32,145 bases of DNA from Candidatus Kaiserbacteria bacterium RIFOXYD1_FULL_42_15 (GTDB lineage Bacteria > Patescibacteriota > Minisyncoccia > Phycocordibacterales > UBA918): positions 29,408-61,552 of the forward strand of contig MFMT01000042.1 of the NCBI GenBank assembly GCA_001783565.1, written 5' to 3'. A model generated the notes under the pieces. The model made no database searches. It saw only the letters and a program-made list of their open reading frames with translations, and was not told where the DNA came from. The position numbers were made by a program, and so were the translations under genes. This document shows positions 1 through 32,107 of this stretch, one piece after another; within the stretch, counting starts at the first letter, position 1, and the number at the start of each line of letters is the position of its first letter.

Positions 1-86
1 CAATAGGAGGACAATGAAATTGACCACGGATTAGAATCTGTAGTCAATCATTTCCATTAGAGTTAAGAACCATAAAGAAAGTAAAT

Positions 87-170
87 GCGTCGGTGGCAGA
101 GTGGTCAATTGCAACAGACTGTAAATCTGTCGGACATCGTCCTACGAAGGTTCAAATCCTTCCCGGCGCA
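87..170 (+). tRNA. tRNA-Tyr(GTA)
   Basis: Cloverleaf: acceptor GCGTCGG/CCGGCGC, anticodon arm ACAGA-CTGTAAA-TCTGT, long variable arm, T arm GAAGG-TTCAAAT-CCTTC, discriminator A; CCA not encoded. Confidence 0.96.
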
Positions 171-828
171 CAGTAACAAAAATCAGCTCAACTTTTTAGT
201 TGGGCGATTTTTTGTCTGTGCGCCGGGAGTGAGTGATTTAATATCACTCACGTAAGGATTTGAAGCCCGATTGAGCTGGATTATGAGTGAAGCGAAATAA
301 TCCAGCCAATTGGGGTACTGAACATGTAATGTTCAAATCCTTCCCGACGCACCAAATACCAAAACTCAAGCGACAGCTTGAGTTTTGTTGTATTTGGTAG
401 CGCCGGGAAGGATTTGAAAGACGAAGCCGGGGCCCCTCTGGGCCGGCGAGTCGGGGTCGAGCGAATGAGATATTTTGTGAATGAAATGAAACAAAATATC
501 CATGAGAGTGACCAAATCCTTCCCGACGCACGCGTATAAAAATCAGCTCAAGCTTTTGCTTGGGCGATTTTTATTGCGTGCGCCGGGAGCAAGCAAATAG
601 TTTTGCTTGCGTAAGGATTTGAAAGCCACAGCGATGTAGCTTTGCTACGAGCGAGGCGGGTGAGAAGTGATTTGACATCACTTCGCAAGACCTTGCCCGC
701 TATCTTTGAAGCGAAGCGAAAAGTAACGACAAGGTGTACAGAATTCGTAGAATTCGCGAACACTTTGTAGAATTGAACGTAGTGAAAATTATACTTAGTG
801 ATTCGTGTTCAAATCCTTCCCGGCGCAC
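171..828 (+). repeat. Array of tRNA-Tyr 3'-end copies (3 inverted, 3 direct) separated by palindromic modules
   Basis: Inverted copies at about 217-264, 400-418 and 578-623; direct copies (GTT)CAAATCCTTCCCG(A/G)CGCA at 331-354, 513-531 and 807-828. Confidence 0.93.
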
Positions 829-830
829 TC

Positions 831-865
831 TTGACATAAGTTTAACTTAAGTTAAACTTATGTCA
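831..865 (+). promoter_or_regulatory. Sigma70-type promoter covered by a perfect 34-bp palindrome (likely TA operator)
   Basis: TTGACA 831-836, 16-bp spacer, TAAACT 853-858, ATG at 865; 832-865 TGACATAAGTTTAACTTAAGTTAAACTTATGTCA is its own reverse complement. Confidence 0.75.
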
Positions 866-1131
866 TGAATACAAAAACAGACAAGGATATTGTCGGTCTT
901 AAAGAACTTCGTGAAAACATGGAGACTTATATAGAGCGCGTAAACAAAGGTGAATCAATCACCGTATTTCGTCGTTCTACTCCCCTGTTCCGTATCACTC
1001 CGATCGATGCTGAAGAAGGGGGTTGGGAAACTGTCATCGACTTCACCAAAGAATCAGGTCACGGAGTTCCGATAGAACAACTACTCGCCTCAATGAAAAA
1101 AATGCATGGACAGAAATCAAAAATTTCTTAA
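865..1131 (+). CDS. Phd/YefM-family antitoxin
   Basis: 88 aa; N-terminal 'IVGLKELRENMETYIERVNKGESITVFRRSTPLFRI' fits the Phd DNA-binding pattern; overlaps the downstream toxin-like gene. Confidence 0.8.
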   Translation: MNTKTDKDIVGLKELRENMETYIERVNKGESITVFRRSTPLFRITPIDAEEGGWETVIDFTKESGHGVPIEQLLASMKKMHGQKSKIS

Positions 1132-1348
1132 AAGGCTCAGTAATAAAGAATTTGATGCCGTAGAGCATATTCTACGGAAGATTTTAGTCAGAGACACCTC
1201 TAGTCTTGATATTAAAAAACTATCTAGTTATAAAGATGTGTACCGAGTTCGAATAGGAAGCATTCGTATTATCTTTCTAGACACGGGAAATCATACTGAG
1301 GTTTTAGAAATCAGCAGAAGGAGTGAGAAGACGTATAAAGATTTTTAG
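1106..1348 (+). CDS. RelE/ParE-family toxin
   Basis: 80 aa basic protein with 'IKKL...YRVRIGSIRIIF...VLEISRR', typical of RelE. Confidence 0.85.
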   Translation: MDRNQKFLKRLSNKEFDAVEHILRKILVRDTSSLDIKKLSSYKDVYRVRIGSIRIIFLDTGNHTEVLEISRRSEKTYKDF

Positions 1349-1492
1349 TCCTCCCCAAACAAAGTTGTCGAACCAACTCCAACCTCACTCTCACAAGTAA
1401 AACGAAAACACTATCATATATGTGTTTTCGTTTTAGAAATTTAACCGCTTCTGGTTTCGTAATTGAGTTTGATGTGGAATCAAATAGCAAAA

Positions 1493-1524
1493 CGTGGATT
1501 GCTTCGTTGTGACTCGCAAAGACG
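1493..1524 (+). repeat. Single arm of CGTC-type palindromic repeat
   Basis: CGTGGATTGCTTCGTTGTGACTCGCAAAGACG; same sequence at about 25964-25995 and near-identical at 14384 and 17268. Confidence 0.85.
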
Positions 1525-1737
1525 GTAAAAAATAACAACAGTAACGCCAATATGAATTCTTTCCACATAACCTCAGATACATATCTGTATTCCTTAATGA
1601 TAAAAGAAAGTACTAAATGTGTTTAGACATTACAAAAAATATTTTTGGCAAATATTCCCTAAATCAACTGTAACTCAAAAACCTGTAGAATAATGTATAA
1701 TTAACAATAGATTTGAACCAACGCCAGGGAGGGCGCT

Positions 1738-2244
1738 ATGAGGAAAATGTTTGTTTTTATTGTCCTTGCCTGGTTGCTTATGACAAACGCCACGAGTGCA
1801 TTGACAATAACAGAAGCGCAGAAATGTGCCGACCGACTGCTCGAAGCATACAACAGTCGTAGTTACCCCGGGAAAATGCTCATGCTCGAAGCCATCACTC
1901 AACGCACCTTCGGTATGTTGTACCGTTCGATGACTAATCAAGAAAAAGCAGAGGCCACAAAGGCCACAAAGCGGGTACTGCGTGAATCGTTTGAACAGCC
2001 GACTGGACAGTACCAGTACAAAGACCTGGTGGTTGGTCCTGTCGAAACTACCAAACATGGCTTCCGTATTAATGGCACAGTTCATATTACTTCACCGAAA
2101 TATACTGGAACGGCCTCATTCATGGCACTAGTGTATCCTGGTTGCAAGGTTGAACAGGCCCGCATTGGCAACATTTACGCTCTTGATATCGCTTTGCGGG
2201 AAATGCTCAAGAAGGAATCAAAATGGAGAGATATCCTTGGCTAA
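1738..2244 (+). CDS. Secreted protein, possibly MlaC/Ttg2D-like lipid shuttle
   Basis: N-terminal signal peptide, GGGAGG SD, downstream hairpin; segment 'LEAITQRTFGMLYRSMTNQEKAEATKATKRVL' resembles the MlaC helices (by eye only). Confidence 0.6.
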   Translation: MRKMFVFIVLAWLLMTNATSALTITEAQKCADRLLEAYNSRSYPGKMLMLEAITQRTFGMLYRSMTNQEKAEATKATKRVLRESFEQPTGQYQYKDLVVGPVETTKHGFRINGTVHITSPKYTGTASFMALVYPGCKVEQARIGNIYALDIALREMLKKESKWRDILG

Positions 2245-2300
2245 CAAAAGAACAAACCGGCCACGCCCAAAGGGCGCGGCCAATTTATTTATTATGCCAA

Positions 2301-5003
2301 TTAATTCACTATTACTTCTTTGGACTTTTTAATTACTTTCTTAGTTACCCCGTTCCCCGCTCGAGCGCGTTTTTTGACGTCAAAATCAAGCTCGCCTTTT
2401 TTCATATCAACCCTAACTGTACCACCACGCAACATCCCTTCGTTAATCATCAATGAAGCGACAGGTGTCAGAATCTTGCTTTGGATCACCCGCTTTAATG
2501 GCCTAGCGCCAAATTTTGGATCATAACCTTCCTTGGCTAAATAATCCATCACGGCATCGCTTACTGTCAAAGCAATTTCCTTACGGCGCAGACGTTCCAT
2601 TACCTCGGTAATTTGTAGACCAACTATACTGCGAATAGTTTCGGGAGAAAGGATGTCAAAGACAACAATCTCATCCAAGCGGTTGAGAAACTCCGGTCGG
2701 AAAAAATGTTTCAAACTTTCCAAAACCTTTTCCTTAGCTTGACTATATTGAGCCACTTCCCCATGTTCGACCGAGAAACCAAAATTTGACATCCGGTCAA
2801 TGTGTTCGGCCCCGATATTTGAAGTCATGATTATGACCGTGTTACGGAAATTAACTTTACGTCCCTTAGCATCAGTCAAATGACCGGAATCAAGCACCTG
2901 TAGTAAAATATTGAAGACTTCTGGATCGGCTTTTTCAATTTCATCTAGTAATATGACCGAGTAAGGACGGTGTCGGACACGCTCAGTAATATTGCCACTT
3001 TCTTCATGACCAACATACCCAGGTGGAGAACCAATAATTTTCGACACGGAGTGCTTTTCCATAAATTCAGACATATCAATCCGTATCAGTGCATCGGGGT
3101 CATTAAACATGAATTCCGCCACCGCCCGTGATAACTCTGTCTTTCCCACTCCGGTTGGTCCAAGGAATAAGAACGAACCAATCGGACGATTAGGGTCTGC
3201 AATACCAGCCCGTGACCGCTTGATAGCATTAGCGATTAAATTGATGGCGTTCTCTTGCCCAATCACTCGTTTCTTGAGTTCGTCTTCAATTCGAGAAAGC
3301 TTCTGCACCTCGGCTTCAAGCATGCGCGAGACTGGTATGCCCGTCCAACGCGACACCACGGTAGCAATGTCTTCTTCGGTCACCTCCTCTTTTAGTAATC
3401 GGCGACTACGCTGTAGCTTCTTCAACCTTTTCAGCTTAGTATCCAAGTCTCGTTCTAGGGAGGGAATGGTATCGTAGCGAATCTCAGCTGCTCGGGTTAA
3501 ATCAGCTCTCGCTTCGGCACTGTCGGACTCAAGACGCGTTTCCTCGAGCTCTTTCTTCAGCTTTCCAATTTCACCCAAGGCGTCTTTTTCGTTATTCCAT
3601 TTTGTTTCTAGGGCAGAAGTAGTCTCACGCAACTCACCGATTTCGTGATCAATTTCTTTGAGACGAACTTTAATACGTATTTTTTGTTCAGATATTTCTT
3701 TTTCTTTCTTAAGAGCTTCCCGCTCAATTTCCAAACGCCTAACTTGTCTGTCAGCATCAACTAATTCATCTGGTTTATTTTCCAGAGAAATACGTAAAGC
3801 GGCCGCCGCCTCGTCTATCAAGTCCACGGCCTTGTCGGGCAAAAATCTGTCGGTAATATAACGAGCCGATAAATTAACTGCCGCAATAATAGCGTCATCA
3901 GTTATTCTTACTCCATGGAATAATTCGTATTTTTCCGCAATACCACGCAAGATGGCTACAGTATCATCCTGACTTGGTTCATTAACAAACACCGGTTGAA
4001 ATCGTCTAGTGAGGGCCGGGTCACGTTCAATATGTTTTTGATACTCTTTTAACGTAGTGGCGCCAATGACTCGCATCTCTCCGCGCGCCAAAGCCGGCTT
4101 CAGCATATTAGAGGCGTCCATTGATCCCTCGGCTTGACCAGCACCAACAATAGTGTGAAGCTCATCAATAAAAAGAATTACCTGGCCGTGCGATCCTTCT
4201 ATTTCTTTCATAACGGCTTTTAGTCGTTCCTCAAATTCACCACGAAACTTTGTTCCAGCTATTAAGAGACCCAAGTCGAGTGATAAAATTTCCTTACCTT
4301 TGATTGACTCGGGGACTTGACCCTGGGCAATTTGTTGTGCCAAACCTTCGGCGATTGCTGTTTTACCAACACCCGCTTCCCCTATAAGGACGGGATTGTT
4401 TTTTGTACGGCGCGACAGAATTTGAATTACTCTTTGCACTTCCATGTCGCGACCAATGACTGGATCAAGTTTATTATCCTGAGCCAACTTTGTTAAATTT
4501 CTAGTGTACTTGGTTAGGGCTCTAAATTTCTTTGGTTGTTCGGCATCAGTGACTCGATGCTCACGAATTTCTTTAATGACCTCCAGCACTCTATTTTTAT
4601 CAAGACCAATCCGCAAGATCATTTCCGCCGCTGGACCAGGATGCTCAAGCACAGCCACAAATAGATGTTCGACTCCTACATACGAATCACCCAGTTGTTC
4701 CGCTAGATGCCCCGAATACTCTAATGATTTTGCCAGCTCTGGAGTTAGATATAGTTGGTATGATTGAGAAACATTAGAAGCAGATTCAGGATCCTCCAGT
4801 GCCTCAAGGAGTAAGTCGGTAAAAGCGATGACGTCAATATCAAGTTTATCGAGGACAGAAATTACCATACTCTCATCCTGCATGGAGAGTGAGGTTAGTA
4901 AATGAATCGGACTAACATGATTTTGACCACGTTCAATAGCGAGTTCATGGGCTTTCCTAATGGCCTCTTTAGCTTTAGTTGTAAAATTTTGAAAATTTGG
5001 CAT
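2301..5003 (-). CDS. clpB: ATP-dependent chaperone ClpB
   Basis: 900 aa; Clp N-domain, Walker A GEAGVGKT and GPTGVGKT, long coiled-coil middle domain, GARPLKR sensor. Confidence 0.95.
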
Positions 5004-5214
5004 AGTCGAATTGTCTTATATTATTTTCACCTCTCTTCACTCAGTAATTATATTTCTTTCAGACACCAAGGGTGACGGTCTGTGACCGATTACTCTATAA
5101 TGCAATATATGGACGTCGCTGTCAAAAAATAGCTGGCCACCGTTGGTAATTAATATTTTATTAACTATAAGGTTCAGATTATTAGTAACTAATAGTGATG
5201 TTTAGAAACGACAT

Positions 5215-5498
5215 GGATTGCCACACTGCGGTTCGCAAAGACGGACGGTGACGTTCATCGTCTTTGCGAGGAGGGAGCCCGCAGGCGAGGGACGTGGCAA
5301 TCCAGGGTGACGGGGCGATGTGGACGGACGATGGCGGGCGTGGATTGCCATGCCTCGCAAAGACGGACGGTGGTGACGGACGTTCTTTGTCTTTGCGAGT
5401 GAGAAAAACATACTATGCTTTTCTCACTCGCAAAGACGCATTGGTGTATATACCAAAAATCAATATAGGTCGTCATTGCGAGCAAAGCGCGGCAATCC
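5215..5498 (+). repeat. Cluster of CGTC-type REP-like palindromic repeats
   Basis: Alternating arms GGATTGCC...TCGCAAAGACG and CGTC(T/A)TTGCGAG...G(T/C)GGCAATCC. Confidence 0.88.
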
Positions 5499-5529
5499 AG
5501 AGTTGGTGTGACGTCACAGATTGCTTCCC

Positions 5530-5612
5530 TACAGATGAACGAATGAGTGTCGTAAAAATAAGACGTAACGTAGTGTAGTTTTATTTTTACGACCGAGTGA
5601 GTGAAATCTGTA
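5530..5612 (+). repeat. Long hairpin with three tandem GA/GA mismatches
   Basis: TACAGAT-GA-AC-GA-AT-GA-G.. 16-bp stem 5549-5564/5578-5593 ..C-GA-GT-GA-GT-GAA-ATCTGTA. Confidence 0.75.
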
Positions 5613-5642
5613 TGTTAATACAGGGACTGTTCAGGTTGTAAG

Positions 5643-6863
5643 CTAAAGTTTCTTTAGCTCCTCAACATGTTTAGCCAAAATTGCCACAGTTTTATCAAGT
5701 TCCGCTTTGGTGGTGTCTTCACCTAAAGTAAACCTGAGGGTAGAAGTGGCCCGAATAGAATCTCCTGAAATCGCCTTCACTACCGTACTTTCCCCACCCC
5801 CAGCGGCACTACAAGCACTTCTAGTACTAGCCGAAACCCCATGAGTATCAAGCATCACTACCGCAAATTCACTATCAATACCCGGGATAGAAACATTGAC
5901 ATTGTTAGCCACCCTTTTTTCACCAACTGATCCATTTACGATACATCCTGAAATTTCATTTGTTAATTTTGCCATAAAATAATCTCGCAAGTTCCTAACT
6001 GATTCACTGCGTGATAAATATGATTGCTGGGCTATCTCTAGCGCTTTAACACCACCAACGATTTGAGCCAATGGCTCGGTTCCGGGGCGAAGACCGTTTT
6101 CTTGGCCACCACCAAAAGTGATAGCTTCTAATTTTATCCCTTTTCCGCATGCTAAAATCCCGACACCTTTAGGGCCACCAAATTTTCCAGCATCCAAAGA
6201 CATTAGATTAATCTTATGACGAGGTAATTCGCACGGTAACCACAATGGTGCCTGGGAAGCATCGATAAATAACAAAACGTGTTGCCCAAGCGCTTGCTCC
6301 TGCTCCAACACCCGACTTACTGCCCCGATATCCTCAATTGTGCCAATTTCACTATTCACGTACGATATGCAAACTAGAATAGTTTGTTCATTGATCAAAC
6401 CCCTAAGTTCCGAAAGGATGACCTGTCCTCCAGCATCGACAGAAACATAATGAATCTTGACTCCTTTCCTCGATAAATATACCAAGGTCTTCTCTGTAGC
6501 CGGGTGTTCAATTTTAGTGGTAATAATTTCCATTTGATTCATAGGTGTTCCATCTCTTCTTTTGGTGGACACAACTCCCCTGATGGCTAAATTATTACTT
6601 TCCGTTCCTCCACTAGTGAAGGTCACCCCGGCTGGTTGGATTTGCAAAATCTGTGCCACCTTGGAGCGGGCTTCATGAAGGGCATTCTTGGCTTCTTGAC
6701 CCTCAAGATGAATGGAGCTCGCATTGCCAAAATTATCAACCAGAAAAGGAGTCATGGCTTTAACAGCTTCTTTGTACATCGGCATAGCTGAAGCATAATC
6801 CAAATAGATTCTAGTAAGCTTAGATGTGGTTAAACCCTTTTTTATATTTTTCAAAAATGACAT
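5643..6863 (-). CDS. iscS: Cysteine desulfurase (NifS/IscS family)
   Basis: IYLDYA, FTSGGTESNN, EH, PLP-lysine region 'DAGKFGGPKGVG', GGGQE-GLR-GT, catalytic 'SACS'. Confidence 0.92.
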   Translation of the reverse strand: MSFLKNIKKGLTTSKLTRIYLDYASAMPMYKEAVKAMTPFLVDNFGNASSIHLEGQEAKNALHEARSKVAQILQIQPAGVTFTSGGTESNNLAIRGVVSTKRRDGTPMNQMEIITTKIEHPATEKTLVYLSRKGVKIHYVSVDAGGQVILSELRGLINEQTILVCISYVNSEIGTIEDIGAVSRVLEQEQALGQHVLLFIDASQAPLWLPCELPRHKINLMSLDAGKFGGPKGVGILACGKGIKLEAITFGGGQENGLRPGTEPLAQIVGGVKALEIAQQSYLSRSESVRNLRDYFMAKLTNEISGCIVNGSVGEKRVANNVNVSIPGIDSEFAVVMLDTHGVSASTRSACSAAGGGESTVVKAISGDSIRATSTLRFTLGEDTTKAELDKTVAILAKHVEELKKL

Positions 6864-6965
6864 GCTGAAATCATGACATGGGGTGTAATATATGTAAATA
6901 TCTGCTATACTCGCAGGACTAATTTACCAACGTGGGCTGCCGTGGCATTTTTATATCAAATTACT

Positions 6966-8465
6966 ATGACAAAAAATACTAAAACCAACACTCCGAATAT
7001 GACCAAGCGACCACCAATTGTGGTGGTTATGGGTCATATTGACCATGGCAAATCAACTCTTTTAGACTTTATTCGAAAAAGCCATGTGGTTGATAGTGAG
7101 ACTGGAGGTATCACTCAACATCTTTCCGCCTATGTGGTACCACACACTACCAAAGATGGCACCAATGAATCAATCACCTTCCTAGACACTCCCGGACACG
7201 CCGCTTTCCAAAAAATGCGTCTTCGTGGTGCTGATGTGGCCGATATCGCCGTCTTAGTAGTGTCTGCCGAAGACGGAGTAAAACCCCAAACCCTTGAAGC
7301 CCTTGAATCTATTAAGCAGGCAGGCATTCCCTTTATTGTTGCCATTAATAAAATTGACAAACCAGGGGCTGACATTTCCAAAACCCAAGCCAGCCTAATT
7401 GAACACGAAATATATATTGAAGGTATGGGGGGAGATATTCCATGGGCCCCCATCTCAGCCAAGGTCGGTACTGGTGTCTCAGAATTGTTGGACTTAATTA
7501 TTCTAGCCGCCGATATGACCGAACTCAAAGGCGATCAGAATGCACCGGCCGAAGGGATTATCATTGAAGGAAAGCTGGACCAAAAAAGAGGCAGTACCGC
7601 CACTCTAATTATCACTAATGGGACCCTCAAGAGTGGTCAGTTCATTGTTTCTGGTACCAGTTTTGCTCCAGTGAGAATTATGGAAGATGCCACTGGCAAA
7701 ACTATAAAAGAAGCTACTCTTTCAACCCCAGTCGGGATTGTTGGTTGGAGTACTATCCCTAAAGCCGGAAGTCAGTTTTATACCGTAGGCAGTAAGAAAG
7801 AAGCCGAGGTGGCCATCTTAGCAACAATCGCTCCGATTGTAACAGACCATAAAAAAAGCGGACTTCCCACTATCCCAGTCCTTATCAAGGCGGACGTCCT
7901 CGGTACCCTAGACGCGATTGAGCATGAACTAAACGCCTTTAAGTCTGAGCGTATCAGTGTGCGCATTATTGATACTGGTGTCGGACCAATTTCCGAGAAT
8001 GACGTTCAGGCCGTCAGTGCCACAAAAGACGCCATCATTGTTGGATTTAATGTAAAAGTGGAAAGAGGAGCAGTTGACATGGCCGAACGTCTTGGGGTTG
8101 AAATAAATACTTTTGATATTATTTATGAACTGTCCGAGTGGCTCAATACCGCTCTTAAAAATCGCACCCCAAAAAAAGAAGAAAGTGTTATTACTGGTCA
8201 TGCTAAAGTATTGAAACATTTTAGCACCCAAAAATACATTCATGTTCTTGGTGGTCGGATTGAAGATGGCGTTCTCAAACTTGGGCAAAGTGTTCGTATT
8301 CTACGTCGCGAGATTGAAGTGGCTAAAGGCATGGTTAAGAATCTTCAACAACAAAAGTCTGATGTTAAGCAAGTGAACGATGGTGAATTTGGTATGCAGA
8401 TTTATTCTAAAAACGAAATCGCTCCCGGAGATATAGTTGAAGGTTTTGAAATTGTGGTTTCATAA
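6966..8465 (+). CDS. infB: Translation initiation factor IF-2 (short form lacking the large N-domain)
   Basis: [39 protein letters not shown] motifs; start moved to ATG 6966 because a TGnTATACT promoter lies at 6903-6911. Confidence 0.95.
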
Positions 8466-8466
8466 T

Positions 8467-8847
8467 ATGGAAATAAAACCCATTACTTTTGATAGACATG
8501 ACCGAGCGGCTTCTTTAATTAAAGAAATAGTAGCCACCTTCATTCAACAAGAGGCAAATCCCAATCCTCTTATTACCGTAACTCACGTTACTGTTTCTCC
8601 AGATTATCGAAAAGTGACAGTGTTTTTTACCACCATCCCTGACGGTCGCGAAGAAGATGCTTTAATTTTCCTCAAGCGCAGTGCTAATGAGATGCGCGGA
8701 TTTGTGAAGAAAAAAAGTAGTTTAAGAATTATTCCCCACTTGGAATTCTCAATAGACTACGGCGAACGACATCGCCAACACATCGATGAGATTGCCCACG
8801 AGATTGAGCACAGTGATGCCGACACCCCTACAGAACCAACCACCTAG
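8467..8847 (+). CDS. rbfA: Ribosome-binding factor A
   Basis: 'ITVTHVTVSPDYRKVTVFFT' and 'LRIIPHLEFSID'; directly after infB. Confidence 0.92.
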   Translation: MEIKPITFDRHDRAASLIKEIVATFIQQEANPNPLITVTHVTVSPDYRKVTVFFTTIPDGREEDALIFLKRSANEMRGFVKKKSSLRIIPHLEFSIDYGERHRQHIDEIAHEIEHSDADTPTEPTT

Positions 8848-8874
8848 GACATCCGATGTCCTAGGTGGTTGGTT
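8834..8874. repeat. Palindrome with 20-bp perfect arms overlapping the rbfA stop
   Basis: AACCAACCACCTAGGACATC-C-GATGTCCTAGGTGGTTGGTT. Confidence 0.9.
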
Positions 8875-8932
8875 GTACAGCTTGATATCTTTTGTCTATA
8901 GCGACCAAAAATGCTAAAGTAATACGCGACCA

Positions 8933-9005
8933 GTCCTGGTGGCGAAGTGGTTAACGCTACGGTTTGCAAAACCGTCATTCGTGGGTTCGACTCCCACCCA
9001 GGACT
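8933..9005 (+). tRNA. tRNA-Cys(GCA)
   Basis: Acceptor GTCCTGG/CCAGGAC, anticodon arm ACGGT-TTGCAAA-ACCGT, T arm GTGGG-TTCGACT-CCCAC, U discriminator. Confidence 0.96.
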
Positions 9006-9199
9006 CATTTATATAAAAACGTACATTCGTACGTTTTTATATAAATGAGTCCTGGGAGTTGTGTGCCTGCGCACACAACGTTGGGAATCGAACAGCGGAG
9101 TTATGTTTTCTCCTCTTCCCTAGAGGAGAAAACAGACGAGCTGCGTCCAGCGTTCTTATGAGCGTCAGCAAATTAGAAAAAGAGGGACGATTTCCACCA
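8997..9199 (+). repeat. tRNA-Cys 3'-end inverted copy, module and degenerate direct copy
   Basis: Perfect 28-bp inverted repeat 8997-9024/9029-9056; inverted T arm TGGGAATCGAA 9082-9092; degenerate direct copy CGATTTCCACCA 9188-9199. Confidence 0.85.
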
Positions 9200-9245
9200 T
9201 AAAACAGAATCAAATTTGAAGTAAATCTAGAAAGGAGTTCCCCTT

Positions 9246-9329
9246 GCCGGGATGGTGTAATCGGTAGCCACGCAAGACTTAAAATTTTGTGGGCGCAAGC
9301 CCGTGCGGGTTCAAGTCCCGCTCCCGGCA
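9246..9329 (+). tRNA. tRNA-Leu(TAA)
   Basis: Acceptor GCCGGGA/TCCCGGC, anticodon loop CTTAAAA, long variable arm, T arm GCGGG-TTCAAGT-CCCGC. Confidence 0.95.
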
Positions 9330-9675
9330 CAATGTAATAGTACGTCAGATTTTTATCTGGCGTACTATTACATTTGCCCCAGGGACTTGAAGAGGTTGCC
9401 TGCTAGATTATGAGCTAGCGAAATAATCTAGCGACAACCTGTACTGAACTCGTAGAGTTCAAGTCCCGCTCCCGGCACAAATTAAAAACTATCATTCTTG
9501 AGAGTTTTTAATTTGTGCCGGGAAGAAAGCAAACTGCTTTGCTTTCGGGCGGGACTTGAAAGGCGGAGCGACGTGAGTTTACGAACAAGCGAGCCAGGGT
9601 CGTGAGCGATATATTTTTAAGGAGTTCACGACTATAAAAATAATCGACTCCTGACCAAGTCCCGCTCCCGGCACA
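9330..9675 (+). repeat. Array of tRNA-Leu(TAA) 3'-end copies (2 inverted, 2 direct)
   Basis: Inverted 9376-9391 (degenerate) and 9514-9560; direct 9457-9479 and 9656-9675 (CAAGTCCCGCTCCCGGCACA). Confidence 0.92.
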
Positions 9676-9751
9676 AAGTATTATTAAGAATATATAGATA
9701 GGTTGTCTAATTTAAATTTATCTTGTACACTTTGCTCTACCAAATATATAT

Positions 9752-9824
9752 GCGCCCTTAGCTCAGTTGGTAGAGCAGCTCCCTCTTAAGGAGACGGTCC
9801 AAGGTTCGAATCCTTGAGGGCGCA
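9752..9824 (+). tRNA. tRNA-Lys(CTT)
   Basis: Acceptor GCGCCCT/AGGGCGC, D arm GCTC-AGTTGGTA-GAGC, anticodon loop CTCTTAA, T arm CAAGG-TTCGAAT-CCTTG. Confidence 0.95.
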
Positions 9825-10107
9825 CAAAGGTAAAGCAAAAACACTATCATAATATGATAGTGTTTTTGTTTTAAAAACTGAACTGCTTCAGTTTTGTGCC
9901 TGTGTGCGAGACGGAGCGATGTTTTTCTGCCCCCTTAGGCAGGAAAATAAGTGAGTCGGGGTAGCGAGTGCTTAGTAAAATAAAGACAAAGTATTTATTT
10001 TGGTTAGCAACTCGTGACCACACAGATACATCTATGTGCTATACATGACATGATTTTGTGACTAAATGATAATGTGTTACACTCTGTCCACACGATTTTG
10101 TGTATCC

Positions 10108-10189
10108 GCGCGAGTGGCGTAATTGGTAGCCGCGTTAGTCTTAGGAACTAATGGAGCAATCCGTGGAGGTTCAAGTCCTCTCTCGCGCA
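10108..10189 (+). tRNA. tRNA-Leu(TAG)
   Basis: Acceptor GCGCGAG/CTCGCGC, anticodon arm TTAGT-CTTAGGA-ACTAA, variable arm, T arm GGAGG-TTCAAGT-CCTCT. Confidence 0.95.
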
Positions 10190-10339
10190 CAAAAGAAAAA
10201 CCGTCCCGCAAGGGCGGTTTTTTGACTGCGCGAGAAGTAGTGTGTGGGACACACTACGGGAGGACTTGAAGAGGTTGCCAGCTCTTTTGAAAAAAGAGCG
10301 ACAACCTGTACTGAACTCGTAGAGTTCAAGTCCTCTCTC
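10190..10339 (+). repeat. Terminator-like hairpin, then tRNA-Leu(TAG) 3'-end inverted copy, module and direct copy
   Basis: Hairpin 10196-10223; inverted copy 10227-10270; direct copy GTTCAAGTCCTCTCTC 10324-10339. Confidence 0.9.
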
Positions 10340-10362
10340 CACATTTCCTATATAATAAACAA

Positions 10363-10785
10363 ATGGCTCAACAAAATACCCAATTTGATTTCGGTGATGG
10401 AAAGCAACCAACTTCCTCATTCACCCTCTATGAATACATCATTAGTGACCGCGGTAGCCGGTATTCAGCCAGTATTGGTTTTGTCACCGGGCGAGAAGAT
10501 ATAAAAAATTTTCTATCCAAACTAAAGACACTAAAAAAATACGCTAGAGCAGATCATCACAGCTGGGCAGCTCGTCTTTCACATGAGGGTACCATTTACG
10601 AAACCAAAAGTGACGATGGTGAGACTGGTGCCGGCATGGTCATACTCCGGATTATGCAAAAAAGGAACGTCACCAACTGCATCATCTCTGTCACTCGCTG
10701 GTTCGGTGGCATTAAATTAGAAGGAGACCGTTTCAAGCATATTCAAGACGCCACCATCTACGCCATTGACCACCTTGATCAATAG
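10363..10785 (+). CDS. YigZ/IMPACT (UPF0029) family protein
   Basis: 'DRGSRY', 'ADHHSWAAR', 'SDDGETGAG', 'VTRWFGGIKL..DRFKHI'. Confidence 0.88.
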   Translation: MAQQNTQFDFGDGKQPTSSFTLYEYIISDRGSRYSASIGFVTGREDIKNFLSKLKTLKKYARADHHSWAARLSHEGTIYETKSDDGETGAGMVILRIMQKRNVTNCIISVTRWFGGIKLEGDRFKHIQDATIYAIDHLDQ

Positions 10786-10817
10786 ATTTATATCGCGATT
10801 AATCGCGATATAAATCT
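10784..10817. repeat. Perfect 34-bp palindrome overlapping the YigZ-family stop codon
   Basis: AGATTTATATCGCGATT|AATCGCGATATAAATCT. Confidence 0.9.
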
Positions 10818-31864: not shown

Positions 31865-31951
31865 GGAAGAGTCGCATAGTGGTCTAGTGCACCGGTTTCG
31901 AAAACCGGCATCGGGGAAACTCGATCGAGGGTTCAAATCCCTCCTCTTCCG
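31865..31951 (+). tRNA. tRNA-Ser(CGA)
   Basis: Acceptor GGAAGAG/CTCTTCC, anticodon arm CCGGT-TTCGAAA-ACCGG, long variable arm, T arm GAGGG-TTCAAAT-CCCTC, G discriminator. Confidence 0.96.
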
Positions 31952-32107
31952 CAGTGAATGAAATGAACGAAGGAAGAGGAGGTTGCAGCATTTTGAAAAA
32001 ATGCGTAGCAAGATTTGAAGCCCGATTGAGCTAGATTATGAGCTTGCGAAATAATCTAGCCAATTGGGGTACTGAACATGTAATGTTCAAATCCCTCCTC
32101 TTCCGCA
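31952..32107 (+). repeat. tRNA-Ser 3'-end inverted copy, module and direct copy
   Basis: Interrupted inverted copy 31972-32019; module 32020-32084; direct copy GTTCAAATCCCTCCTCTTCCGCA 32085-32107. Confidence 0.92.

Follow-up and report, generated by a model that had tools for sequence, protein, structure and literature searches.

A 9-bp hairpin within inverted copies of tRNA 3′ ends is a module of a gene-less, hairpin-built mosaic repeat family in a groundwater bacterium

The 9-bp hairpin that splits inverted copies of tRNA ends in this 757-kb genome of a groundwater bacterium (37 tRNA genes) is the conserved first stem-loop, hereafter hp0, of a gene-less mosaic repeat family built from hairpins, and is probably not a tRNA mimic. 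Behind tRNA genes the family forms units of 150–300 nt, with no gene remnants inside, in the order terminator, inverted copy of the tRNA end (I), structured core and direct copy of the same end (D), and these units stack in arrays. The closest known system is the E. coli tRNA-linked repeats (TLRs; RtT), which have the same layout and no detectable homology. The explanation we consider best, and to which we give about an even chance, is that the units are a DNA-level, hairpin-based mobile or duplicative cassette.

The window is the whole 32,145-nt stretch of DNA that was analyzed. Its first-pass annotation had reported five 9-bp hairpins behind tRNA genes; rechecking the coordinates located all five at those positions, each enclosed by an inverted copy of the last 21 nt of the upstream tRNA. 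Counting only perfect hairpins with a stem of 9 bp or more and a 3–5-nt loop, window positions 1–10800 contain 12, compared with a mean of 0.165 and a maximum of 2 in 200 dinucleotide shuffles of the same interval; a chance origin of the hairpins there is excluded. The tRNA-Tyr array is composed as follows.

87..171, + strand: tRNA-Tyr(GTA) (ARAGORN; Rfam tRNA, 60.9 bits)
151–171, + strand: D1, the tRNA's own last 21 nt, T54 to C74
172..217, + strand: spacer 1, a terminator-like hairpin (site 186–205) with A and T tracts; by folding, it extends the D1:I1 helix
218..264, + strand: I1, with acceptor arm 218–227, A228, hp0 229–251 (stem strands 229–237/243–251), GT 252–253 and T-stem/T-loop arm 254–264
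262..334, + strand: core A (model R1, 91.8 bits)
332..352, + strand: D2, with one G-to-A difference, followed by CA
353–396, + strand: spacer/terminator 2 (terminator-like at 360–387)
397..418, + strand: I2, uninterrupted, without hairpin
419..513, + strand: core B, GGGGTCG...GTGACC type (nhmmer family)
514..531, + strand: D3, tRNA positions 57–74
532–577, + strand: spacer/terminator 3 (terminator-like at 546–565)
578..623, + strand: I3, with hp0 589–610 of the third unit (stem strands 589–597/602–610)
624..807, + strand: core C, composite (R1 match 686–755)
808..828, + strand: D4, identical to D1

Core A comprises the stem CCCGATTG/CAATTGGG around a 9-bp hairpin with a GAG..CGAA loop, and a second hairpin whose 3′ strand is the GTTC of the next direct copy; core C includes a second generic module, GGTGAGAAGTGA..TCACTTCGCAAGAC..TGTACAG. 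Cores are exchangeable: elsewhere on this contig, tRNA-Leu(CAA) is followed by the very same 73-nt core A between different arms. The remaining loci of the window, the last of which lies beyond the range covered by the first-pass annotation, are the following.

8933..9006, + strand: tRNA-Cys(GCA) (ARAGORN), with D1 at 8986–9006
9007–9046, + strand: perfect 24-bp palindromic spacer directly after tRNA-Cys
9047..9092, + strand: Cys inverted copy, with hp0 9058–9079 (stem strands 9058–9066/9071–9079)
about 9093–9215, + strand: Cys core, ending in a decayed direct copy
9246..9330, + strand: tRNA-Leu(TAA) (ARAGORN), with D1 at 9310–9330
9373..9478, + strand: Leu-TAA unit 1, with degenerate I 9373–9391, core 9389–9460 (R1) and D2 9458–9478
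9515..9560, + strand: Leu-TAA unit 2 inverted copy, with hp0 9525–9546 (stem strands 9525–9533/9538–9546)
9561–9656, + strand: Leu-TAA unit 2 core B, followed by D3 at 9657–9674
10108..10190, + strand: tRNA-Leu(TAG) (ARAGORN), with D1 at 10170–10190
10226..10270, + strand: Leu-TAG inverted copy, with hp0 10237–10257 (stem strands 10237–10245/10249–10257)
10268..10339, + strand: Leu-TAG core (R1 match 10268–10327) and truncated direct copy 10325–10339
31865..32106, + strand: Ser-CGA locus, with tRNA-Ser(CGA) at 31865–31952 (ARAGORN)
31970–32019, + strand: Ser-CGA inverted copy; its hairpin, at the T-stem/T-loop boundary, is longer and interrupted
32017–32088, + strand: Ser-CGA core A (R1), then direct copy 32086–32106

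This anatomy recurs throughout the genome and its clade. We reverse-complemented the last 21 nt of each tRNA and used them as queries for split alignment at the loci of 251 tRNA genes (214 of them in 91 other loci, 37 in the genome studied here), which yielded 44 inverted-copy matches of at least 19/21, while control queries taken from a different tRNA matched at 5 of 251. Inserts of 24–27 nt that fold as a 9–10-bp stem with a 3–5-nt loop occupy 28 of the 44, and among these the split index is 10 in 17 and 9–11 in 24; insert position and stem length are therefore non-random, and the five hairpins first reported are not the chance subset that would have refuted the first-pass annotation. Within this genome, the automated search finds an inverted copy, split or unsplit, of the gene's own last 21 nt (T-loop to C74; at least 19/21) at 17 of 37 tRNA genes, and three further genes have one visible by eye with a decayed arm, bringing the total to 20/37. 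Manual reading of the alignments gives about 24 inverted copies: 13 are split, at the point where the partners of nt 65 and nt 64 would otherwise adjoin, by a 24–27-nt insert of the form A-G(9–10-bp stem)C-G-N; in two this hairpin, placed likewise, holds a nested ~80-nt module in its loop; in five the hairpin is longer and interrupted and lies 4–5 bp further along, where T-stem meets T-loop; three have no insert, and one is degenerate. The 65/64 split recurs in distant relatives. The notion that the hairpin always occupies the same structural position is thus borne out for 15 of ~24 copies here and for 24 of the 28 hairpin-bearing copies overall, and is not universal. Direct copies lie 135–440 nt downstream of the tRNA end (up to 644 nt in the Tyr array) and stop sharply at C74; every tRNA-linked unit is on its tRNA's strand, between terminator-like hairpins.

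The same hairpin occurs away from tRNAs. At many places without tRNA arms we find a generic repeat in the order hp0, GCAAGA linker, stem-plus-hairpin, and hairpin with a TGTAA loop, and the free cores are preceded by the G..C-footed 8–9-bp hairpin seen in the tRNA units. Of the core copies, 40 retain their 5′ end intact; an hp0-like hairpin ends at most 22 nt upstream of 19 of these, and in 8 more hp0 is split by a nested module. This ~80-nt module sits in the hp0 loop in 9 of 9 copies with both ends visible (11 found), two of them inside inverted tRNA copies. In locus L039, adjacent Lys and Leu-TAG units have an identical 24-nt hp0 between wholly different arms. We accordingly rejected the idea that hp0 is an interruption aimed at a tRNA-like position, since it is also present in repeats that lack tRNA arms.

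To characterize conservation of the stem, we aligned 27 inverted copies that are split by the hairpin, drawn from 10 genomes or contigs. Paired bases fill 97.1% of 210 cells, 7 of 8 pairs have changed on both sides, and none of 500 shuffles reaches this covariation. The first-pass proposal that structure rather than sequence is kept therefore survives in its structural half; its other half holds only in part, as sequence is constrained at some positions: an A precedes the stem and a G follows it almost without exception, the closing pair is nearly always G-C, and the pairs adjoining it are mostly A-U. Pairing of the inverted copy with the direct copy of the tRNA end is predicted to give the three-way junction that the annotation had foreseen (z-scores −9 to −12), for RNA or DNA and on either strand about equally well. 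It had further suggested that this junction is selected as a tRNA-shaped mimic or as a recognition site for tRNA-binding proteins. In its favor, the hairpin leaves at most 1 nt from the acceptor/T-stem boundary in 15 of ~24 copies here and in 24 of the 28 hairpin-bearing copies overall, with stem length held at 9–10 bp. We regard this as quite improbable, since the same repeat family carries hp0 without any tRNA arms and the branch point varies, five copies branching at the T-stem/T-loop boundary and three not at all. The acceptor end and the elbow are the usual handles of tRNA-binding enzymes, and here both are missing: the discriminator, C74 and the whole T-loop pair in the inverted copy, so that neither a free acceptor end nor a T-loop elbow is left.

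The core stems show compensatory changes in 19 of 24 pairs, and the family's loops and linkers (GAG..CGAA, TGTAA, GCAAGA) are conserved; such deep covariation and conservation would also suit a functional RNA. The units could then be genes for small structured RNAs akin to the tRNA-linked repeats, released from tRNA-terminator read-through transcripts by tRNA-end machinery because the helix that closes them is a copy of the acceptor and T stems, with hp0 as a structural arm and the conserved loops as the acting parts. A conserved G-U pair in 6 of the 15 core copies aligned from this genome and the sharp end of the direct copy at C74 are consistent with this, as is precedent in E. coli, whose TLRs rrA, rrB and rrF are described in PMC8144298 as read-through sRNAs that bound Hfq and CsrA in vitro. 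The orientation of our units with their tRNA, between terminator-like hairpins, is shared with these expressed repeats as portrayed there, and counts against a DNA cassette. On the other hand, we see no excess of G-U over A-C in the stems of 38 distinct cores (28 versus 21), and both strands fold about equally well. Free cores lie in either orientation to the upstream gene (21 versus 19); as they are not co-oriented and lack a G-U excess, a requirement for sense-strand RNA is a poor fit. The number of core matches varies widely within one genus (0 to 73 per genome), close strains lack units, and older inverted copies (His, Ser-CGA, Leu-CAA unit 1 and Leu-TAA unit 1) have decayed without compensation. 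Taken together, we consider an RNA gene rather unlikely.

The TLRs have the layout in common with our units. These E. coli repeats are rrA, rrB and rrF, downstream of rRNA operons, and, in the tyrT-tyrV operon, the RtT/RttR units (Rfam RF00391). Like ours, they immediately follow a stable-RNA gene and share its strand; they occur in tandem arrays (four units in the E. coli locus L001) and end, according to PMC8144298, in a copy of the gene's last 18–19 nt. In the Rfam consensus, the RtT closing stem pairs a partial inverted copy, GgGaaGGAU, with the direct copy AUCCuuCcC. The RtT model, which scores E. coli units at 133–137 bits, has no match at E up to 1 in window positions 1–10800. The inverted copy spans 21 nt to C74 here, versus ~9–10 nt in E. 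coli, and is usually split by hp0, and the cores, unlike those of TLRs, are swappable and also found away from tRNAs.

Each unit consists of a terminator-like hairpin, I with hp0 inside, a structured core, and a D of 18–22 nt of the same tRNA end, terminating exactly at C74. In single-stranded form, I and D would pair into a helix of ~21 bp from which hp0 projects. Under the cassette reading that we prefer, these DNA-level mobile or duplicative elements would enter at, or be built on, the tRNA 3′ end, leaving the gene undamaged; they would stack into arrays and later be lost by recombination between D repeats. The hairpins may be kept by selection through a structure-specific enzyme acting on single strands, for which an HUH/Y1 transposase of the IS200/RAYT kind is a candidate. 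Turnover speaks for such elements: model R1 matches 38 of the 41 genomes of the genus, at 0 to 73 matches each, and tRNA-Tyr is followed by three units here, by one each in G004 and G006, and by none in G003, G014 and G025. Contigs from two other aquifer runs join 166 to 348, exactly the absence of Tyr unit 1, with break points resolvable only to within the D repeat. The genome-wide layout, hp0 as a family module, the exchangeable cores and the uncompensated decay of older inverted copies count in favor as well. The genome encodes five Y1 genes: one is an IS200 TnpA, and the other four are RAYT-like, each bracketed by its own palindrome. Genomes with more Y1 matches tend to have more core matches (Spearman 0.57 across 41 genomes, which as kin are not independent), yet up to 29 core matches occur in genomes that lack a Y1 match. 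None of the five transposase genes is flanked by hp0 or core modules; the IS200 copy has none of the RAYT-like genes' palindromes around it either, and its ends are unlike the modules. We also saw neither a target-site duplication of fixed length nor an excised form, and simple transposition leaves unexplained how I matches the local tRNA while hp0 and core are common to all.

Two families of hairpin elements offer partial models. In the single-strand hairpin elements represented by IS200/IS605 ends and their gene-less derivatives, a short guide sits at the hairpin foot. These elements resemble our units in a ~9–10-bp hairpin with a conserved foot, in a sequence 5′ of the foot complementary to the element-target junction, and in the lack of terminal inverted repeats and of a fixed target duplication; the guide is 4 nt there versus 10 + 11 nt here. 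To our knowledge, REPs have not been described as carrying copies of a neighboring gene's end. In other respects REP/BIME repeats, as characterized by Nunvar et al. 2010 (PMC2817692), are similar, being high-copy extragenic hairpins in mosaics of alternating orientation, the arrangement we find for the extragenic modules of this genome. Covarying stems and abundance that varies between relatives extend the likeness, as do the palindromes around the RAYT-like genes, although none of those genes is bracketed by hp0 or core modules.

The order D1, hairpin, I, D2 would also fit a miniature inverted triplication, made without any mobile element when replication switched templates at two short palindromes, one being the terminator and the other the T-arm; hairpin modules would later have filled the unstable palindromic junctions. 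Direct-inverted-direct structures with palindromic, later remodeled junctions are known from ODIRA and tandem inversion duplications, as outlined by Brewer et al. (bioRxiv 10.1101/2023.09.19.558550), at a scale of kilobases versus 21 nt here. Indeed, D1, spacer and I form one long, often perfect palindrome centered on the terminator; TTCGAA T-loops are themselves palindromic; and I mirrors the full T54–C74 while D2 often begins only at nt 57, in a set ascertained through I. As predicted, an identical second terminator copy comes after the direct copy in L039 and L041. However, a duplicated terminator is present in only 2 of 23 units with D2, both from these near-identical contigs; elsewhere D1 and D2 precede different terminators, so the flank is rarely duplicated. 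The junctions here hold conserved modules; the fixed place of hp0 inside I, the common cores and the frequency of events (20/37 tRNAs) are left unexplained, and we judge a triplication improbable.

A last alternative, decayed integrase-borne islands that integrated in the tRNA T-loop and left attL and attR after deletion of their interiors, seems to us very improbable. The genome's sole tyrosine recombinase is Xer-like, on another contig and far from any tRNA; the units, at 150–300 nt, have conserved structured cores and neither integrase nor cargo; and the inverted copy and conserved hairpin modules have no counterpart in attL/attR elements. Classical tRNA att sites reportedly run from the T-loop to the 3′ end, as Williams is said to have noted in 2002, and the direct repeat here has that span beside an intact tRNA. 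Like attL/attR duplications and cis-mobilizable derivatives, the arrays also look like tandem accretion, with units lost between repeats, as seen for Tyr unit 1.

The five hairpins that the first-pass annotation had reported inside inverted tRNA copies were all found where it had placed them, and perfect hairpins of at least 9 bp number 12 in window positions 1-10800 against 0.165 expected from shuffles. The host genome (G000) comes from groundwater-type samples and comprises 757 kb in 43 contigs with 37 tRNA genes at 84% completeness; the window is part of its contig C42, and its first 10.8 kb offer an ordinary coding context (a weak Phd/YefM-like ORF, ClpB, a class-V aminotransferase, IF-2, RbfA and a UPF0029 protein). 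The anatomy of a unit is clearest behind tRNA-Tyr, where D and I denote direct and inverted copies of the last 21 nt of the tRNA, numbered along the array, and hp0 denotes the 9-10 bp hairpin that splits I.

Features of the first tRNA-Tyr unit (window positions)
151-171: D1, T54 to C74 of tRNA-Tyr; the tRNA ends at 171
172-217: terminator-like hairpin behind tRNA-Tyr, with the site called at 186-205
218-264: I1, reverse complement of D1, split past its tenth base by A-(GTGAGTGAT TTAAT ATCACTCAC)-GT
between I1 and D2: core of unit 1, 70 nt, structured
332-352: D2 of the Tyr array

Behind D2 follow I2 without a hairpin, D3, I3 with a hairpin and D4; the unit pattern thus recurs two further times, and the array therefore reads D-I-D-I-D-I-D. 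Directly past the last tRNA-Tyr end copy, a perfect 22-nt palindrome (838-859) overlaps a promoter-like site ahead of two small ORFs (865-1348), the first of which is a weak Phd/YefM antitoxin match under the Pfam cut-off.

Folded alone, I1-core-D2 is predicted to form a three-way junction, with an acceptor-side helix of 10 bp, the 9-bp hairpin and a T-side helix leading into the core. Its minimum free energy is -66.3 kcal/mol as RNA (z -10.1) and -40.3 kcal/mol as DNA (z -12.1), and that of the opposite strand as RNA is -63.5 kcal/mol (z -9.3). The junction foreseen in the first-pass annotation is thus borne out by prediction, whereas its reading of the structure as a tRNA-shaped mimic is weakened: a mimic would leave the discriminator unpaired and the 3' end free, but I pairs through N73 and C74, and every base of the T-loop, which a mimic would hold free for the elbow, is predicted to pair with its complement. 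When tRNA-Tyr is included, the minimum-energy structure is a D1:I1 helix across the terminator, leaving the tRNA 5' acceptor strand free to pair with D2. There are therefore two possible partners for I, namely D2 in the unit alone and D1 in the presence of the tRNA.

When each tRNA end was searched for its direct and inverted copies, the same layout emerged behind most tRNAs of the genome. Split alignment with the reverse-complemented 21-nt end placed an inverted copy of 19/21 or better behind 17 of the 37 tRNAs; in His, Gly-TCC and Ser-CGA, the acceptor arm of I has decayed. Our own reading of the searches and alignments gives a total of about 24 inverted copies in G000, of which 13 carry an insert of 24-27 nt.

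Inverted copies in G000, by form
Insert of 24-27 nt (13): Ala, Val-TAC, Gly-TCC, Thr-CGT, Thr-GGT, Ser-ACT, Phe, Leu-CAA unit 2, Tyr units 1 and 3, Cys, Leu-TAA unit 2, Leu-TAG
hp0 at the usual place, enlarged to 97 nt (2): Ser-TGA, Leu-CAA unit 1
Longer interrupted hairpin past a complete T-stem complement (5): Lys-TTT, His, Arg-TCT, Ser-GCT, Ser-CGA
Uninterrupted (3): Tyr unit 2, Arg-GCG, Trp
Degenerate (1): Leu-TAA unit 1

Among these copies the branch lies 1 nt inside the T stem in 15 and at the T-stem/T-loop boundary in 5, and 3 are unbranched. The direct copies are 18-22 nt long and end at C74. In G000, 6 of 12 downstream direct copies are followed by CA, so that these displaced copies read CCA, compared with 1 of 12 of the tRNA genes themselves; in other genomes CA follows 0 of 11 direct copies. 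As for the tRNA genes of G000 at large, 30 of 37 end in discriminator-C-A, and an encoded CCA is present in only 3 of 37.

The arrangement extends well beyond this genome. Across 251 tRNA genes, including same-genus loci and metagenome contigs found via IF-2, 44 are followed by an inverted copy scoring at least 19/21, against 5 of 251 in a control that took its query from a different tRNA; some of these loci (L058, L061, L072 and L088) have an IF-2 only 46-54% identical to that of the window. An insert of 24-27 nt occurs in 28 of the 44, with a split index of 10 in 17 and of 9-11 in 24. In an alignment of 27 hairpin-split copies, the A before the stem, the closing G-C pair and the G after the stem are all near-invariant. 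Over the eight stem pairs tested, 97.1% of 210 cells are paired, both-sided changes occur in seven of the eight pairs, and none of 500 shuffles equals the observed value; when the partner is slid along, pairing falls to 30-48%. This pattern of covariation speaks for selection on the pairing of hp0.

The cores belong to a small number of families that are found far from tRNAs as well. Their free form reads (G)TGAGAA-hp0-TTCGCAAGA-(stem around a GAG..CGAA-loop hairpin)-TGTACAG-(TGTAA-loop hairpin). In an alignment of 15 stem-plus-hairpin cores, compensation is seen at 19 of 24 predicted pairs. A covariance model built from these copies (R1) has 73 matches in G000 and is represented in 38 of 41 genomes of the genus, at 0 to 73 matches per genome, numbers that are not to be equated with exact copy numbers. 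Of the cores, 40 retain an intact 5' end; a hairpin of 8 bp or more ends no more than 22 nt upstream of 19 of them, and in 8 further cores the upstream hairpin is split by a nested module of about 80 nt. This module has 11 copies and lies between the halves of the hp0 stem in all nine with both ends in view, two of them inside inverted tRNA copies. Moreover, free copies have the same loop and inner stem as hp0 of Tyr unit 1 (AGTGATTTAAT..TCACT). Taken together, the hairpin upstream of free cores, the module nested in hp0 and the common loop identify hp0 as a module of this family that now sits inside I. Local direct or inverted copies were looked for around free cores, and none were found.

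The free modules nest in turn within still commoner repeats, whose 10-mers (e.g., GTCTTTGCGA and CGTGGATTGC) reach 118-150 occurrences in 757 kb. Very abundant intergenic repeats based on GTGGATTGC/GCAATCCAC and CTCGCAAAGACG/CGTCTTTGCGAG are seen at window 5215-5530 and genome-wide; they alternate in orientation and are spaced regularly at about 23-25 and 80-120 nt, in the manner of the BIME mosaics of enterobacteria. Another small palindrome, ACTTAGGGGTT.AACCCCTAAGT, has eight copies, two of which (C24:501 and C29:9647) centre locally unique palindromes reaching 12 and 18 bp beyond it; inverted copying of flanks around a hairpin is thus not confined to tRNA ends.

Cores are interchangeable between units. 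A 73-nt core is identical behind tRNA-Tyr and tRNA-Leu(CAA), with arms that differ throughout, and at locus L039 one 24-nt hp0 is common to the Lys and Leu-TAG units, set in unrelated arms. tRNA-Tyr has three units in G000, one each in the congeners G004 and G006, with other cores, and none in G003, G014 and G025; G003 has only 5 core matches. In contigs of two other aquifer runs, position 166 is joined to 348, so that exactly unit 1 is missing, and in one contig 345 nt around tRNA-Leu(TAA) are replaced by 195 nt. The 166/348 break falls inside the repeat, which permits no finer placement. In the empty form, tRNA-CCA leads straight into the flank found behind D2 in the window, and its tRNA has the G that is present in D1 and absent from D2. 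The simplest reading is that the insert is the block spacer 1, I1, core and D2. This comparison draws on assembled contigs only, which can reveal a missing unit and not ends, circles or rare variants. A scan of metagenomes for IF-2 gave no match closer than 78% identity and therefore yielded no filled-versus-empty pair at the sequence level.

E. coli has been known to carry tRNA-linked repeats since 1978, to our knowledge without explanation to date. Like the E. coli TLR, or RtT (RF00391), which directly follow a tRNA or rRNA gene in its own orientation, the present units come straight after a tRNA gene and share its strand. PMC8144298 defines the TLR by a 3' end in which the final 18-19 nt of the gene upstream recur; the 3' end of our units likewise repeats the upstream tRNA end, here over 18-22 nt. 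The RtT covariance model gave no match at E up to 1 in window 1-10800, nor at the gathering score in the whole window, and detected four E. coli tyrT-tyrV units at 133-137 bits as a positive control. In the Rfam consensus of RtT, the closing stem is a 9-nt partial inverted copy paired with the direct copy, and the layout is therefore common to RtT and the units; the inverted copy in E. coli differs in being short and unsplit. As in REP/BIME elements, there are short extragenic palindromes in high copy, forming mosaics of alternating orientation, but the RAYT-like genes of G000 are not bracketed by the hp0/core palindromes. A search of the published literature did not find this tRNA-linked form described, which is not proof of its absence. 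The feature is a new, modular and far richer form of the tRNA-linked-repeat layout. More than half of the tRNA genes in this 757-kb genome are followed by it, and it recurs widely among Patescibacteria. These tiny genomes devote a visible share of scarce intergenic DNA to such structures. Their value for study lies in an inverted copy that covers the tRNA end in full, with a covarying, conserved hairpin at a preferred place inside it, in interchangeable cores, and in presence/absence differences among strains. With these properties the origin of the repeats becomes directly testable, and it can be asked how a shared module gains arms matching each tRNA.

Whether the units act as RNA or as DNA can be weighed from several of these properties. 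A structured RNA is the less favoured reading; the covariation and conserved loops speak for it, as do the co-orientation of units with the tRNA, the terminator-like hairpins that flank them and the precedent of the E. coli rrA/rrB/rrF repeats, described as read-through sRNAs in PMC8144298. Against RNA, G-U is not in excess over A-C among 38 distinct cores in an alignment fitted to the model (28 vs 21, p 0.39), an excess present in the 15 copies of G000 being lost in this larger set. Free cores have no orientation bias relative to neighbouring, crudely called ORFs (21 vs 19), both strands fold nearly equally, abundance is very different among relatives, and older arms decay uncompensated. An Rfam search of the units at E up to 1 matched only the tRNA family; weak matches to microRNA families were rejected as a mere reflection of long hairpins. 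Hammerhead-like motifs in the core and box C/D or H/ACA-like guides were considered from sequence and dropped. On balance we favour a DNA-level element, though not strongly.

Candidate machinery was sought among the genes of G000. The reverse transcriptase domain RVT_1 has no match in this 84% complete genome, which speaks against retroelement-made copies; a primer-binding-site reading was dropped for the same reason. A direct repeat running from the T-loop to the tRNA 3' end flanks the insert, as at integrase att sites; a Phage_integrase search of the genome found no tyrosine integrase gene or remnant in or beside the insert. The one Phage_integrase match, on contig C29, scores 182 bits to XerC and XerD models, and from this homology the sole predicted tyrosine recombinase of G000 is Xer-like. 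Folded sites of the integron attC or CTX type were dropped because this only tyrosine recombinase is Xer-like. For annotation, partial tRNA copies in such tiny genomes are not to be taken as integrase scars.

G000 has five Y1_Tnp matches, namely one IS200/IS605 transposase and four RAYT-like proteins of 209-231 aa; among NCBIfam models these fit the REP-associated tyrosine transposase best, at 29-63 bits and thus under its cut-off of 80. The four RAYT-like (HUH Y1) genes (L115-L118, on contigs C11, C7, C41 and C23) are each bracketed by their own palindrome family; within 1.5 kb of them there are no hp0 or core motifs, and the flanks of the IS200 TnpA gene (L114) likewise lack hp0/core modules. 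The ends of this resident IS200 copy, with which gene-less IS200/IS605 derivatives would share homology, do not resemble those modules. The C7 gene's palindrome (CCTAGGACATC..GATGTCCTAGG) is found again over the rbfA stop codon (window 8843-8865), where it is flanked by the last 9 nt of that gene and their inverted copy (about 8834-8874). Core and Y1 matches correlate across 41 genomes (Spearman 0.57, with kin not independent), with a mean of 25.8 core matches in 24 genomes with a Y1 match versus 8.2 in 17 without, the latter having up to 29. The association is a lead and not a link. Four GIY-YIG matches occur in G000, and GIY-YIG enzymes were set aside as unit machinery, no link to tRNA units having been found. 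One small GIY-YIG ORF lies inside a presumed 16S rRNA gene, read by eye (L120, C41:2620-5832), and is probably an intron endonuclease; a second (L122, C22:9381-12599) has abundant repeat modules on both sides.

As to the origin of the arms, simple transposition leaves arms matching each tRNA unexplained. The direct-inverted-direct order would result if replication switched template at the terminator and the T-arm (bioRxiv 10.1101/2023.09.19.558550); the duplicated terminator expected from such a switch was observed in a single organism. As an improbable alternative, the halves of I might form a split guide of 10 + 11 nt around an enzyme-binding hp0, aiming an HUH-type enzyme at the tRNA end. 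In such a model the single-stranded guide would pair with the tRNA 3' end, the candidate enzyme would cut and join exactly past C74, and the cassette would be a programmable, guide-bearing single-strand DNA element that could be re-aimed at any tRNA via changed arms. It would extend the "guide at the hairpin foot" principle of IS200/IS605 from 4 nt there to about 21 nt here. The sharp repeat boundary at C74, the CA behind displaced copies, and the complementarity of all three I of the Tyr array to the true tRNA and not to the adjacent variant copies fit this model and are not proof of it. I matches the tRNA's own end rather than the other direct copy by 81 to 0, in a set selected by similarity to that own end, so only two single-base cases (Tyr and Ser-GCT) carry weight.

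Further rearrangements and unusual genes were seen at other tRNA loci. Downstream of tRNA-Leu(GAG) (C5:6630-6990), the tRNA trailer, terminator and core form a tandem duplication of about 150 nt from which a tRNA-end copy is absent. ARAGORN calls a tRNA-Ser with anticodon ACT adjoining tRNA-Ser(GCT) in G000 (C26:7984-8071) and in its relative G002 (L029:1338-1425); a serine tRNA with A34 would be unusual. At L005 (C5:10100-10830), the 5' two-thirds of tRNA-Arg(TCT) are copied about 200 nt upstream of the intact gene, with a core module and small T-arm fragments between the two, and this locus is an insert that duplicates the 5' part of the tRNA, not the 3' part.
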